Assembly (NCBI RefSeq): GCF_053078305.1
Contig: NZ_CP166879.1
Direction: 5' to 3' (one strand)
DNA length: 64,000 bases
Below are positions 48,001 to 51,000 of the stretch, piece by piece. The first letter of the stretch is position 1. Every line of letters begins with the position of its first letter. Made by a program: the position numbers.

Positions 48001-51000
48001 TTAATGTTTATATGTACTGTTACAGTGTTGATGAAAGGAGATAAAAACAATGTTCCCGGAGTACAGAGAACTGATTTCAGCATTGAAAGGAAATCATAAA
48101 CGCTTTGATTCTTTATTTGAAAAGCATAATAAACTTGATCACGAAATAAAAAGAATTGAAGATGAATTTGGTTCAGCGTATTCGACGAAAGTGGTCAGGC
48201 TGAAGCTTGAAAAACTTGAGATCAAAAGAGAAATCCAGAAAATCCTTGAAGATGAGTCAGAAAAGGGCGAACGGTAATCATAAACGGTATATTCAAAGAC
48301 GTGTTTTCTCTGTTTTATGAAAAAGGCACCGGGGGCTCCACGGTGCCTTTTAGCCTGTGTATAACGAAAAGGAGATCCTGTTCAGCGAACCAGATAGTTA
48401 AAAAAAGAATCTTTACGACGGTATCAAAGTTTTCGTGCAAAAAACATGATCAATATTAAATTCCAGTACATCCATATCCGATATAAATCTTTCCGTCTGA
48501 CAGATACAGATATGCCACGTAACGCATCCGCTGTTTCCGGCTGTGCCGGAGGATAATAACAGTCTGTAGCTTGTTTTGTTTCACTGAAGGTAAACTTTTT
48601 GTACGATAAATTCCGGGAATATGAAGTAAAAATCAAAACAATTCCGGGGGAGATATGCGTTTATTATATTCTGCTGTTGTCCTGATTTCAGCCTTATTGT
48701 TACAGGGATGCGTTGCTGCAACTGTGGTGGGTACAGCCGCTGTCGGGACAAAGGCAGCAACCGACCCACGCAGTGTCGGAACGCAGGTGGATGATGAAGT
48801 GCTGGAGCTGAGGGTCAGCAGTGCACTTTCAAAAGATGAACAAATCAGAAAAGAAGCACGCATCAGTGAGATTGCATATCAGGGACGCGTGCTGCTGATC
48901 GGTCAGTCTCCGGACCGTGAATTATCTGCCCGTGCCCGTCAGATAGCACTCGGTGTCGATGGGGTTCAGGAGGTCTATAATGAAATCCGGCAGGGGACTC
49001 CCGTCAGTCCGGTCATAATGGCTGGTGATGCCTGGCTCACGACAAAAATTCGTTCCCAGTTACTCACAAGTGCCCGTGTCAAATCATCCAGTGTCAAGGT
49101 GGTGACAGAAAACAGCGAAGTCTTTTTACTGGGCCTGGTTACAGAGCAGGAAGGGCGAGCGGCAGCAGATGTTGCCAGTAGGGTGAGTGGCGTGAAGCGG
49201 GTCACGACGGCATTCTCCTATATCCGGTGAAGGCAGGATCTGAGTTGCCTTTAGTGCAAATTTACGTTAAAAATCAGAAGAGCACGTTTCCGGGCCGTTC
49301 ATGCCACCACGTGAACATTCGTCGCGGAATACCGGAGACGTGCTCATTATAATAACCAATATACATAATTCCTCTTTGACACCCCCTGAATTCGGGGGAT
49401 TTTTTTGCCCGGGTATGTTCACTCACAGATAAAATCCCGGTGTACTCCGGATGTCGCTGCTGGTAAATAATCTGAGCTTTTATCTGTATGCAATGGTCAA
49501 AGATCGTGGCGTTAACATCCCCCGGATAGTTTTGTCTGAATCTGATTTTTCTTTTCAGGCAGAATGCCTGTCTGCCGTCCTGGTGTCAGAGTGTAATTTG
49601 CACAATACGGCAATTTGCCGTACAGTGTATTCAGGAGGTACAACTCATGCCATCTGCAACACAAACTGCCCGACTGGAAGCAAGGATCAGCACAGAACTA
49701 CATGCCATGCTGAAGCGCGCTGCAGAAATCCAGGGGCGCACAATGACCGATTTTATCATTTCTGCCGTTCAGGATGCGGCCCAACGTGCTATCGAACAAA
49801 CCGATATAATCCGACTGTCCCGGACAGATCAGGAAATTTTTGCTCAGGCATTACTGTCACCAACAGAGCCGAACGATGCGCTTAAACGGGCCTTTAAACG
49901 CCGTAATAATATGCTGTACACAAAATAAATATAATGTTTCAACTGACACCATTTAACAGCACATATGACAGAACCTCATTTTTATGTGGCTCTGATGCTC
50001 TGGACCGTTACATAAAAGAGCATGTCACACAGGATATTCGACGACGCATCGCGGCCTGTTTTGTCGCTGTAGATAACGATCATAATATCATCGGATACTA
50101 TACGTTATCAGCGGCCAGTATATTATTAACTGACTTACCTGAGCATTTGAGAAAAAAGCTTCCGCGATATCCCACTATTCCGGCTATTCGTATGGGACGA
50201 CTGGCAGTAAGTCTGTCATCAAAAGGAACGGGGCTTGGGGGAGCACTTTTAGCTGATGCGCTATATCGTGCATACACATCTGAAATTGCAGCATATGCGC
50301 TTATTGTTGATGCAAAAGATGACACGGCAGTCGCATTTTACAAACATTATGGCTTTATGGCGTTCCCGGAGTCCGGAAGAACTTTATTCATGCCATTGGC
50401 ATCATTATCCACAATAAAATAAACAGAATAAATCAGGGAAATACGGTGCTTGTGGCAACGTCAGCCCACGAAGTTAAATGTTAACGGGCAACACGGCGGC
50501 AGGAAATCTGCCGCCGGATTGTTGTGAAGGCTGACCACACTGCGCGCCCTTTTTCCTTGATTATCCTGCTCAGTCCAGTGGTCTGTTCCGGATGGGGCTG
50601 TGTTGCGTACTGAATTAATGTGATTACGGAATACCATAATGCCGTATGTACGCAAGATTATTTACCAGCCGCCGGCAACCCCTGCACCAATCGCGGTGTT
50701 ATGAGATGAGTCCCAGGAGATGTTGAGGCGTATATTGGTATTACGTGATGTTTTATACTGAATGCCTGCGGCCACAGCATTAGCGTTCTGATAGTTACCC
50801 ACGCCGATCCCGTATGAAAAAGAATTTTCAGCCACATAGGGGATGGAGGATATTGCCGTCACTCCGGCGATGCCTGCATTAAGTCTTTTTTCTGCCCGTT
50901 CAATTTTATTGCTCAGGTTTCTGAATTTGTTGTCGGTATAACGATTGGCCTCTGACAGTGCCCGGCGGGTACTGATATCGCTGTAGGCTGTTGCCTGTTT

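Follow-up and report, generated by a model that had tools for sequence, protein, structure and literature searches.

The window analysed here, a stretch of 64,000 nucleotides from contig NZ_CP166879.1 (NCBI RefSeq assembly GCF_053078305.1), carries on its plus strand two adjacent genes: a gene of the DUF1778/TacA family encoding an antitoxin of 93 aa (49647-49928, ATG start, TAA stop at 49926-49928) and a gene encoding a GNAT acetyltransferase of 162 aa (49934-50422) that belongs to the family of aminoacyl-tRNA-acetylating toxins. An earlier note on this DNA had placed two open reading frames here, antitoxin first, with a spacer of 5 nt between them, and both the reading frames and the spacer (ATATA, 49929-49933) were found as described. 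The spacer provides no Shine-Dalgarno sequence ahead of the toxin ATG, and translation of the toxin is presumably coupled to that of the antitoxin.

The upstream gene product matches the Pfam model PF08681 (TacA1/DUF1778) with an E-value of 1.9e-27, covering positions 1-78 of 80, and the identical gene in RefSeq bears the name “type II toxin-antitoxin system TacA family antitoxin”. Its sequence matches in the PDB (E-values of 3e-9 to 3e-5) comprise KacA, AtaR, the TacT2-partner chain 7ak7_C and 7zg5_C, a DUF1778 chain that was deposited with the TacT3 sequence 6g96. Its alignments with KacA, AtaR and 7zg5_C span the full length, and the protein displays a layout of an N-terminal ribbon-helix-helix and a C-terminal toxin-binding part. 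The motif ARLEARIS, which is kept among the relatives, forms the N-terminal strand, and residues 4-47 match an Arc-like repressor PHROG.

The downstream gene product matches three GNAT models of Pfam (Acetyltransf_10 with an E-value of 1.6e-08). Matches in NCBIfam were weak and below threshold (RimI, ArsN2 and others), and the identical gene is named by RefSeq/PGAP only as “GNAT family N-acetyltransferase”. The sequence search against the PDB detected AtaT, KacT, TacT, TacT2, TacT3, AtaT2 and GmvT with E-values of 7e-21 to 1e-17, and all 15 of its 15 matches are tRNA-acetylating toxins. For both gene products the matches go far beyond what chance would produce. The predicted fold leads to the same family: using the AF2 model of the toxin (pLDDT 89) as query, Foldseek placed tRNA-acetylating toxins on all of ranks 1-38 in the PDB (TM 0.8-0.93), followed by a 10,000-fold step in E-value from 1e-11 to 1e-7, beyond which generic GNATs appear. 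Furthermore, a DUF1778 gene lies directly 5' of the GNAT gene, in the same order, in 26/26 related loci examined. The distance between the two genes varies from a 4-nt overlap in Pseudomonas over 5 nt in the copies on an IncK plasmid and in a phage to 8-11 nt in those viral loci in which the antitoxin reading frame could be delimited.

The leader of the operon contains a palindrome, TACGGCAA-T-TTGCCGTA (49606-49622, an inverted repeat without strand), whose imperfect arms reach 49601-49627 and which is presumed to be the binding site of the ribbon-helix-helix antitoxin. The core ACGGCA-N3-TGCCGT, with its centre 32.5 nt ahead of the antitoxin start codon, is present also in the phage locus and in a Pseudomonas prophage locus, the latter with a compensatory change from A/T to G/C; variants of it are present in further viral loci, and the operator of the IncK copy is identical. 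A consensus promoter scan detected nothing on the plus strand of the locus, and the candidate hexamers are weak. We infer the promoter from conservation only: a candidate -10 hexamer, TACAGT (49621-49626, plus strand), overlaps the right arm of the operator at a position that reads TACAGT, TACGAT or TACAAT in related loci, and 17 nt upstream of it lies a candidate -35 hexamer, TTGCAC (49598-49603, plus strand), which matches the consensus at 3/6 positions and whose TTG core shows no variation among four divergent loci. Likewise invariant in four loci is the Shine-Dalgarno sequence AGGAGG of the antitoxin (49633-49638, plus strand), located 8 nt before the ATG; as judged from the sequence, the antitoxin gene is strongly translated. 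Downstream of the toxin gene the terminator scan detected a GC-rich hairpin, CGGCGGCAG-GAAAT-CTGCCGCCG (50494-50516, plus strand), which was inherited from a hok remnant described below and is likely to act as the terminator of the operon. On the IncK plasmid this hairpin separates the GNAT gene from the hok gene and has the inverted orientation. Neither at the locus nor at the corresponding site devoid of the pair did Rfam scans reveal a significant RNA family or a match to a Sok or hok model.

In the window toxin Tyr136 aligns with the catalytic tyrosine (Y140 in TacT, Y144 in AtaT), Ala91 corresponds in the alignment to A93 of TacT, and Arg89, Tyr79 and Leu23 align with R95, Y85 and L27 of AtaT, all three of which are required for the toxicity of AtaT (PMC7595197). 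In AtaT the acceptor end of the tRNA is held by H34/R37/R40, K77-K82, Y85, R95 and L27 (PMC7595197), and the equivalent positions of the window toxin (H30, R36-R38, R73-K75, R78, Y79, R89 and L23) are mostly invariant in its subfamily.

The earlier note had also stated that the acetyl-CoA-binding motif is conserved, which proved to be the case in part. Measured against the loop signature Q/R-x-x-G-x-G/A following strand beta-4, the motif K97-G-T-G-L-G102 has an intact glycine core, and its first position is occupied by a lysine in place of the canonical Q/R, which is typical of the subfamily. However, the motif is only partly conserved, since Ser93 replaces a nearly invariant aspartate that is present in 115/118 subfamily relatives and in 6/6 reference toxins compared. 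Four of the residues in or just before the motif differ from the subfamily consensus, deviations from which occupy 5/7 positions between V92 and G100, and Tyr139 occupies a position at which histidine is invariant across the subfamily. Nothing on the role of the aspartate equivalent to Ser93 was found in the papers on AtaT, ItaT and the M. tuberculosis TacT. The toxicity of the protein cannot be assumed, because single natural substitutions abolish toxicity in this family, as does D78A in KacT2 (PMC9431474).

Considered together, the domains, the nearest solved sequences, the fold, the key residues, the constant pairing with DUF1778 genes and the conserved operator bear out the assignment to the TacAT/AtaRT family made in the earlier note. 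The locus as a whole is best explained as a type II toxin-antitoxin operon with two genes that belongs to the DUF1778(RHH)/GNAT (TacAT/AtaRT/KacAT) family. This explanation is very probably correct, and we are similarly confident of the identity and the biochemical mechanism of the pair. No experiments on the pair or the IncK copy were found in the literature searched, and the supplementary files of the GNAT phylogeny paper yielded no match to the RefSeq accessions. The pair is an uncharacterised addition to a known toxin family which genome annotation pipelines already name correctly.

Within this family the window toxin shares only 32-34% identity with every solved toxin compared. A phylogenetic tree separated its subfamily with 100% bootstrap support from six reference toxins, which include TacT, GmvT and a TacT-like toxin of the Shigella plasmid pINV, TacT2 and TacT3 being left out of the tree. 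The GNAT toxin on pINV had initially been taken for GmvT; as it shares only 48% identity with the GmvT of PDB entry 9ilr (GmvT-GmvA), it is a TacT-like paralogue. Either of them shares about 33% identity with the window toxin. The searches detected more than 7800 relatives, located on plant-pathogen plasmids, in prophages and in integrative conjugative elements (ICEs). The subfamily is large and mostly unstudied, and tests have been made on a single probable member. This is TacTBcn of Burkholderia cenocepacia, which acetylates almost exclusively Gly-tRNAGly in E. coli (Bikmetov et al. 2022, NAR, PMC9177977), whereas AtaT and KacT belong to a clade A of broad specificity that acts on Gly- and hydrophobic aminoacyl-tRNAs (PMC9177977). 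The primers used for TacTBcn encode the termini MSGAQL(V)... and ...(M)PLATVK followed by the stop codon. The same termini occur in B. cenocepacia proteins of the subfamily whose identity with the window toxin amounts to 59.7%, and on the basis of these 7+7 terminal residues the subfamily appears to contain TacTBcn. Lys128, which corresponds to the pocket residue L136 of AtaT, was considered as a sign of a new amino acid preference; this idea was rejected because the inferred sequences of the Gly-specific TacTBcn share the lysine.

The pair is part of a mobile cassette of about 0.9 kb (49536-50441, plus strand) that comprises promoter, antitoxin and toxin and shows about 93% identity with IncK2/Z plasmids (pDETEC45, NZ_CP116070; NZ_CP027324). 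In the alignment with pDETEC45 the homology starts near 49536-49553, about 110 nt 5' of the antitoxin gene, and stops about 20 nt past the toxin stop codon; the megablast match covered query positions 130-1042, corresponding to 49529-50441 of the window. The spacer of 5 nt is the same in both copies, and the leader of 94 nt differs at only 5 positions. The plasmid cassette is flanked by excA and a convergent, intact hok/pnd gene; in the window its neighbours are a dolP paralogue on one side and, on the other, what is left of a hok/pndA-type type I toxin gene that runs in the same direction as the pair. This remnant (50434-50566, plus strand) consists of the last 16 codons (QGNTVLVATSAHEVKC and the stop codon) and the 3' UTR; it lies outside the toxin-antitoxin pair and marks the right junction of the cassette. 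About 1860 plasmids carry Hok/Gef loci whose 3' part resembles it with 80-95% identity. A first blastn search had suggested about 1900 plasmids with the pair, but the bulk of these matches was due to the remnant of 130 bp, and a protein-level tblastn search detected a toxin of at least 90% identity in only 9 plasmid records.

The antitoxins encoded by the two copies are identical at 92/93 residues and the toxins at 153/162. The dN/dS ratios of 0.02 for the antitoxin and 0.13 for the toxin, at dS values of 0.21-0.26, indicate that both genes have been under strong purifying selection since the two lineages separated.

The element that carries the cassette in the window is a PFGI-1/ICEclc-type ICE located at a tRNA-Phe gene of E. 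coli, the cassette lying near its integrase end. The earlier reference to an island was borne out by the ICE backbone genes, which are also annotated in a sister genome: the ICE proteins TIGR03755 and TIGR03756 (2953-5362), a TraI-domain protein, a UvrD helicase and the integrase (52354-56483), and the tRNA-Phe gene itself (56679-56754). Other genes on the ICE are related to CDI, sialic acid, subAB, the Kiwa system and a YadA-like protein. Papers on subAB and pheV islands concern other elements and do not mention the pair. A survey of 5426 complete E. coli genomes detected the end of the ICE with at least 98.6% identity in 23. Of these, 10 carry the cassette, which is therefore an accessory and not a core component; as it is absent from the other 13, the ICE does not depend on it. 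In the one variant devoid of the pair that was examined, a longer degenerate hok copy occupies the same place. Strain 2013C-3033 harbours the ICE end on its chromosome and the toxin-antitoxin pair on an IncK2/Z plasmid.

Based on what is known of the family, a dimer of the antitoxin would bind the palindrome via its N-terminal ribbon-helix-helix and repress the operon, while its C-terminal part would plug the active site of the toxin. The free toxin would acetylate the alpha-amine of aminoacyl-tRNA, the likely substrate being Gly-tRNAGly as for TacTBcn, its closest tested relative, and translation would stop because of this acetylation. The damage would be reversible by peptidyl-tRNA hydrolase. 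The most probable benefit of the cassette to the ICE would be a post-segregational growth arrest of cells that lose the island. Such a stabilising or addictive role, by which loss of the island is penalised, seems plausible to us, although we would give it slightly less than even weight. The pair is encoded on the mobile element itself, inside the ICE; its retention by the element is not consistent, given its presence in 10 of the 23 genomes.

Alternatively, the ICE copy may serve mainly as an anti-addiction module that neutralises the near-identical toxin encoded on IncK2/Z (I-complex) plasmids, while the plasmid copy would do likewise for the toxin of the ICE, so that a cell harbouring both elements could shed either one unharmed. 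The two copies have the same operator and differ by 1 of 93 residues in the antitoxin and by 9 of 162 in the toxin, the two elements meet in nature in strain 2013C-3033, and cross-neutralisation between chromosomal and plasmid-encoded GNAT-RHH systems has been shown in Klebsiella (PMC9431474). However, the ICE copy of 2013C-3033 is not among the 10 genomes carrying the cassette, and with only 9 plasmid records encoding a toxin of at least 90% identity such encounters may be rare. Furthermore, the cross-talk would be a consequence of sequence identity and need not reflect a selected function; as the main effect of the ICE copy it seems unlikely. A related idea, which we put forward tentatively and with a modest chance of being correct, is that the ICE and the IncK2/Z plasmids share one interchangeable cassette, so that each element would take away the other's means of post-segregational killing. 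The lineage-specific Asp-to-Ser change at position 93, beside the acetyl-CoA loop, may have shifted the toxin towards a milder and reversible arrest tolerable to both. If true, this would represent a natural case of anti-addiction cross-talk between an ICE and a plasmid via a GNAT toxin.

The cassette might also belong to several defence cargos of the ICE and act by abortive infection, a loss of the antitoxin upon phage infection setting the toxin free to stop translation. A Kiwa system is located 3.3 kb away (KwaB with an E-value of 6e-98, and KwaA), and the cargo region of sister ICEs contains a four-gene CD-NTase/ThiF/MPN/SAVED cluster that was read as CBASS. In addition, close relatives of the pair are morons in prophages, 23 viral contigs encode relatives, and matches to PHROGs were obtained at 1e-29 and 1e-13. 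Neither the antitoxin nor the toxin, however, matches any family of PADLOC-DB 2.0 at an E-value of 0.01 or below, while KwaA and KwaB do, and a GNAT/DUF1778 pair was not found reported as anti-phage in the literature searched. Since kwaA is frameshifted in the window, the region is not evidently under selection for defence, and we assign a low probability to this role.

According to a further reading the pair is an attenuated or non-toxic hitch-hiker that persists although the ICE gains nothing from it. It would have come from an I-complex plasmid through illegitimate recombination, and Ser93 and the other changes in the loop would have cost the toxin most of its activity. The serine at a nearly universal aspartate, the accumulated deviations between V92 and G100 and the natural inactivation by a single residue known in the family (PMC9431474) are in line with this, as are the junctions, which consist of microhomology and the hok remnant only, and the patchy occurrence in the ICE. 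On the other hand, the toxin gene, like that of the antitoxin, has been kept under strong purifying selection (dN/dS 0.13 at dS 0.21), and the protein retains its catalytic tyrosine, the glycine core of the CoA loop and the residues that contact the tRNA. Ser93 is common to the ICE and IncK lineages and therefore older than their period of constraint. Moreover, the inferred TacTBcn has an arginine in place of the second glycine of the loop, yet TacTBcn is active in vivo (PMC9177977). We see only a small chance that the pair is such an attenuated or non-toxic passenger.

An ordinary acetyltransferase of small molecules or proteins that happens to lie beside a transcription factor, as the sub-threshold RimI and ArsN2 matches and the generic PGAP name would allow, is very improbable in view of the 38 top-ranking structures and 15 PDB sequence matches that are all tRNA-acetylating toxins, the coupling to DUF1778 in every one of the 26 relatives and the conservation of the residues by which AtaT holds its tRNA.

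By itself the pair matters little, being one more member of a well-understood toxin family. It marks, however, a large and mostly unstudied subfamily, and it provides a clean example of how a 0.9-kb toxin-antitoxin cassette moves between elements of different kinds, here an I-complex plasmid and a virulence ICE that encodes subAB, CDI and an adhesin. This movement bears on the upkeep of such islands in Shiga-toxigenic and related E. coli, and the Ser93 variant poses a simple structure-function question.

Among the known systems the inferred TacTBcn with its TacA partner resembles the window pair in its subfamily, by tree and by sequence, in the shared motifs LPRYP, RMGRLAV, VDAKD and FY-H-GF and in the DUF1778 antitoxin. 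As judged from its inferred sequence, TacTBcn differs at about 40% of the residues, with an aspartate at the position of Ser93 and an arginine at the second loop glycine, and it is chromosomal or plasmid-borne in Burkholderia in contrast to the location on an ICE in E. coli.

TacAT1-3 of Salmonella Typhimurium and GmvAT of Shigella pINV share the order of a DUF1778 gene followed by a GNAT gene, the fold (TM 0.80-0.93), the catalytic tyrosine and the equivalent of A93. Their identity with the window toxin is only 33-34%, and TacT, the TacT-like pINV toxin and GmvT fall outside its subfamily in the tree. GmvAT keeps pINV in Shigella and is a proven plasmid-maintenance module (PMC8923223), a precedent for the stabilising role proposed for the window pair.

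AtaRT of E. coli O157:H7 and KacAT of Klebsiella pneumoniae provided the best PDB sequence matches (78 and 76.5 bits, respectively) and the best fold matches. They have in common with the window pair the tRNA-binding residues R95, Y85 and L27 and a ribbon-helix-helix antitoxin with a promoter palindrome as its binding site, presumed in the window, but share only 32-34% identity with it and are broad-specificity enzymes of clade A, whereas the toxin described here clusters with an enzyme specific for Gly.

Finally, mosAT of the SXT ICE, which Wozniak and Waldor are said to have described in 2009, is a toxin-antitoxin pair that reportedly lowers the frequency of ICE-free cells and is reportedly induced when SXT excises. 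Although it is composed of unrelated protein families, mosAT is also located on an integrative conjugative element and serves as the model for a stabilisation of the island by the pair described here.

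The antitoxin gene (49647..49928, plus strand, 93 aa) and the toxin gene (49934..50422, plus strand, 162 aa) were found exactly where the earlier note had placed them, in that order and with the predicted 5-base spacer, ATATA, between the two reading frames. The antitoxin matches the Pfam model TacA1/DUF1778 over nearly the full model length (E=1.9e-27) and the toxin matches three Pfam GNAT acetyltransferase models; NCBIfam provides no specific model for either protein. The antitoxin gene is preceded by a strong Shine-Dalgarno sequence (AGGAGG, 49633-49638). The toxin gene lacks such a sequence, which makes translational coupling to the antitoxin gene probable.

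The region upstream of the antitoxin gene contains a palindrome, TACGGCAA-T-TTGCCGTA (49606-49622), whose imperfect arms reach to 49601-49627. It recurs, with its centre 32.5 nt ahead of the start codon, in the copy of the pair on IncK plasmids, in a phage-borne relative (toxin 76% identical) and in a relative in a Pseudomonas prophage (66% identical). In the latter, both arms carry G/C in place of A/T, which preserves the symmetry, and further viral loci carry palindrome variants that are each followed by TACAAT. The alignment of four loci shows a TTG (-35 core) 17 nt before a TACnnT hexamer which overlaps the right palindrome arm; these weak -35/-10 hexamers were not called by a consensus promoter scan. 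The N-terminal strand of the antitoxin, ARLEARIS, is conserved in the loci with the palindrome. Such a layout is classic for operons that an RHH antitoxin autorepresses, and the antitoxin presumably binds the palindrome.

The island to which the earlier note had assigned the pair is real and corresponds to an integrative conjugative element (ICE). The tyrosine integrase, a TraI-domain protein and a UvrD-type helicase are encoded left of tRNA-Phe (52354-56483 and 56679-56754, respectively), and the ICE proteins TIGR03756 and TIGR03755 at 2953-5362. The full backbone is annotated in a sister genome, including TraD, TraG, PilL2 and many TIGR037xx “integrating conjugative element” proteins, and is of the PFGI-1/ICEclc/SPI-7 type. 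The genes past tRNA-Phe (from 56860) match yqgA, speC, nupG and mltC of the sister genome; the window is E. coli chromosome.

Besides the pair, the cargo in the window comprises contact-dependent inhibition genes (11345-22582, minus strand), namely a CdiA-type protein of 2981 aa with a TPS domain, haemagglutinin repeats and a PT-VENN pre-toxin domain, and an upstream 579-aa ORF, the probable CdiB. A sialic-acid utilisation cluster (33797-42696) encodes a nanA-like lyase, an MFS transporter, a KdgM-type porin, an N-acetylneuraminate epimerase, nanR, a sialate O-acetylesterase and two esterases. It lies beside subA and subB (43011-44493, minus strand), which is suggestive because the subtilase cytotoxin binds a sialic-acid glycan. 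Our literature search found no description of this subAB-bearing ICE. In the sister ICE of NZ_AP024130 (L001, 3531-7842) the sialic-acid/subAB block is replaced by four genes for a nucleotidyltransferase, a ThiF-family E1-like protein, an MPN/JAB protease and a SAVED-domain protein. We take this CD-NTase/ThiF/MPN/SAVED cluster of sister ICEs to be a CBASS. The segment from the transfer genes to the integrase is therefore a zone in which defence and virulence cargo is swapped. The Kiwa anti-phage system (45021-46347, minus strand) consists of an intact kwaB (45021-45824) and a kwaA that, compared with the undamaged gene of strain JNEC-KY171, lacks one base near 46068/46069 and thereby falls into two ORFs (45827-46063 and 46030-46347), which points to a pseudogene or else to a sequencing error.

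Directly upstream of the cassette formed by the promoter and the pair, the ICE carries a second dolP/yraP-like gene, for a BON-domain lipoprotein (48655-49230). In JNEC-KY171 a truncated extra copy of the dolP-like 3' end precedes the cassette, which suggests that the arrangement in the window arose from a deletion between two dolP repeats. Downstream, a YadA-like trimeric autotransporter adhesin of 506 aa (50662-52182, minus strand) contains three tandem 156-bp (52-aa) stalk repeats of 94% identity (51044-51516); in sister ICEs the number of such genes is one or two and their length varies.

The ICE end (>=98.6% identity) was detected in 23 of 5426 complete E. coli genomes, only 10 of which contain the cassette, always adjoining the YadA-like gene. 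In the variant S19-141, which lacks the pair, unrelated DNA occupies its place together with a hok-like sequence that is degenerate but longer. The limits of the cassette are sharp (about 49536 to 50441), and between them it shares 93% identity with the cassette of IncK2/Z plasmids, which is flanked by excA on one side and by an intact, convergent hok/pnd gene on the other. The right junction shows no more than a few bases of microhomology. In the window, directly after the toxin gene and co-directional with it, a hok/pndA-type 3' remnant (50434-50566) retains the last 16 codons (QGNTVLVATSAHEVKC, then stop) and the 3' UTR hairpin, and aligns to the 3' portion of the Hok/Gef loci of about 1860 conjugative plasmids. 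The roughly 1900 plasmid matches of a first search were consequently not taken as copies of the pair, as this remnant accounts for them.

Based on the patchy presence in the ICE, the sharp limits and the IncK2/Z copy, the pair is mobile accessory cargo in exchange between this ICE and plasmids of the I-complex. Strain 2013C-3033, with the ICE end on the chromosome (NZ_CP027323) and the cassette on an IncK2/Z plasmid (NZ_CP027324), represents a natural setting for such exchange. Its chromosomal ICE end is apparently without the cassette, and on its plasmid the cassette (93% identical) has two hok genes and vapBC as neighbours.

Relative to the cassette of IncK2/Z plasmids, the antitoxin gene shows 15 synonymous and one non-synonymous differences (dN/dS 0.02), the toxin gene 22 and 10 (dN/dS 0.13), at a dS of 0.21-0.26 for the two genes, and the 94-nt leader only five differences. 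Selection has therefore kept both proteins and the control region since the copies diverged.

An ICE-stabilising role of the pair, as proposed in the earlier note, would be reasonable by analogy to GmvAT on Shigella pINV (PMC8923223). The ICE can clearly persist when the cassette is absent. Where both elements meet, the ICE and IncK copies may cancel each other's addiction, since antitoxins differing by a single residue should each neutralise the other's toxin; such cross-neutralisation has been shown in Klebsiella (PMC9431474). Kiwa in the neighbourhood, the putative CBASS of sister ICEs and the frequent location of relatives in prophages suggest phage defence instead, although PADLOC has no model for the antitoxin or the toxin.

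The toxin was also aligned with six reference toxins. Y136 corresponds to the catalytic tyrosine (TacT Y140, AtaT Y144), A91 to TacT A93 and K97-G-T-G-L-G102 to the CoA loop, while R89, Y79, L23 and two basic patches (R36-R38 and R73-K75) fall on AtaT residues required for toxicity and tRNA binding (PMC7595197). Residues 93-99 and 139 (50210-50230 and 50348-50350) are divergent: at position 93 the toxin has Ser, whereas 115 of 118 subfamily relatives and each of the six reference toxins have Asp; Tyr139 takes the place of a His invariant across the subfamily, and Leu94, Ser95, Ser96 and Thr99 that of the consensus Gln, Ala, Phe and Gln. All six substitutions are common to the ICE and IncK copies, i.e. 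the E. coli lineage. No role for the Asp equivalent to Ser93 was found in the literature on AtaT, ItaT and M. tuberculosis TacT. Since a single natural substitution can abolish toxicity in this family, as in KacT2 D78A (PMC9431474), activity of the toxin cannot be assumed, and Ser93 suggests an attenuated hitch-hiker; however, the toxin is under strong purifying selection.

An ordinary metabolic acetyltransferase is effectively excluded, as all 15 PDB sequences matched by the toxin (E=7e-21 to 1e-17) are tRNA-acetylating toxins (AtaT, KacT, TacT, TacT2, TacT3, AtaT2 and GmvT), Foldseek ranks 1-38 against the PDB are all GNAT toxins (TM 0.8-0.93), and a DUF1778 gene lies directly upstream of the GNAT gene in 26/26 related loci (23 viral contigs, two prophage/phage loci and the IncK plasmid). 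The AlphaFold model searched was built on 40 homologues (mean pLDDT 89), and the Foldseek E-value steps from 1e-11 to 1e-7 between GNAT toxins and ordinary GNATs. The antitoxin matches the partners of those toxins in the PDB, KacA and AtaR among them. Pfam domains, PDB sequences, fold and residues thus agree that the assignment to the TacAT/AtaRT family was essentially right.

Within this family the toxin is equidistant from AtaT, KacT, TacT, AtaT2, GmvT and the TacT-like Shigella pINV toxin (32-34% identity to each), and in neighbour-joining trees its relatives form a separate lineage split from these six with 100% bootstrap. The subfamily comprises more than 7800 proteins (E<=1e-10), with two E. 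coli clusters (98% and 94% identity), one at 76% and many at 60-68%. Members include proteins of Pseudomonas, Azoarcus, Burkholderiales and Halothiobacillaceae, and plasmids of Pseudomonas syringae, Xanthomonas, Xylella and Burkholderia glumae commonly encode subfamily members. Close relatives of the pair also occur as morons inside phage genomes, one after a holin/lysozyme lysis cassette and one among Mu-like tail/baseplate genes of a Pseudomonas prophage (L008, 3714-4510, and L009, 3723-4507, are the respective phage-borne and prophage loci), both retaining the same operator.

One member, TacTBcn of Burkholderia cenocepacia, seems to have been studied already: its published primers (Bikmetov et al. 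2022, supplement) encode MSGAQL(V)... and ...(M)PLATVK followed by stop, and the subfamily's B. cenocepacia proteins (59.7% identical to the toxin in the window) begin and end in precisely this way. The link is based on these 14 terminal residues rather than a deposited sequence. Expressed in E. coli, TacTBcn acetylated almost only Gly-tRNAGly (Bikmetov et al. 2022, PMC9177977), and this specificity is the best guide so far to the probable substrate of the toxin described here. The cassette common to ICE and plasmid, the otherwise unstudied subfamily and the Ser93 variant are points of modest interest. RefSeq already annotates the pair as a member of the known family, and it is an uncharacterised representative of that family and not a new kind of system.
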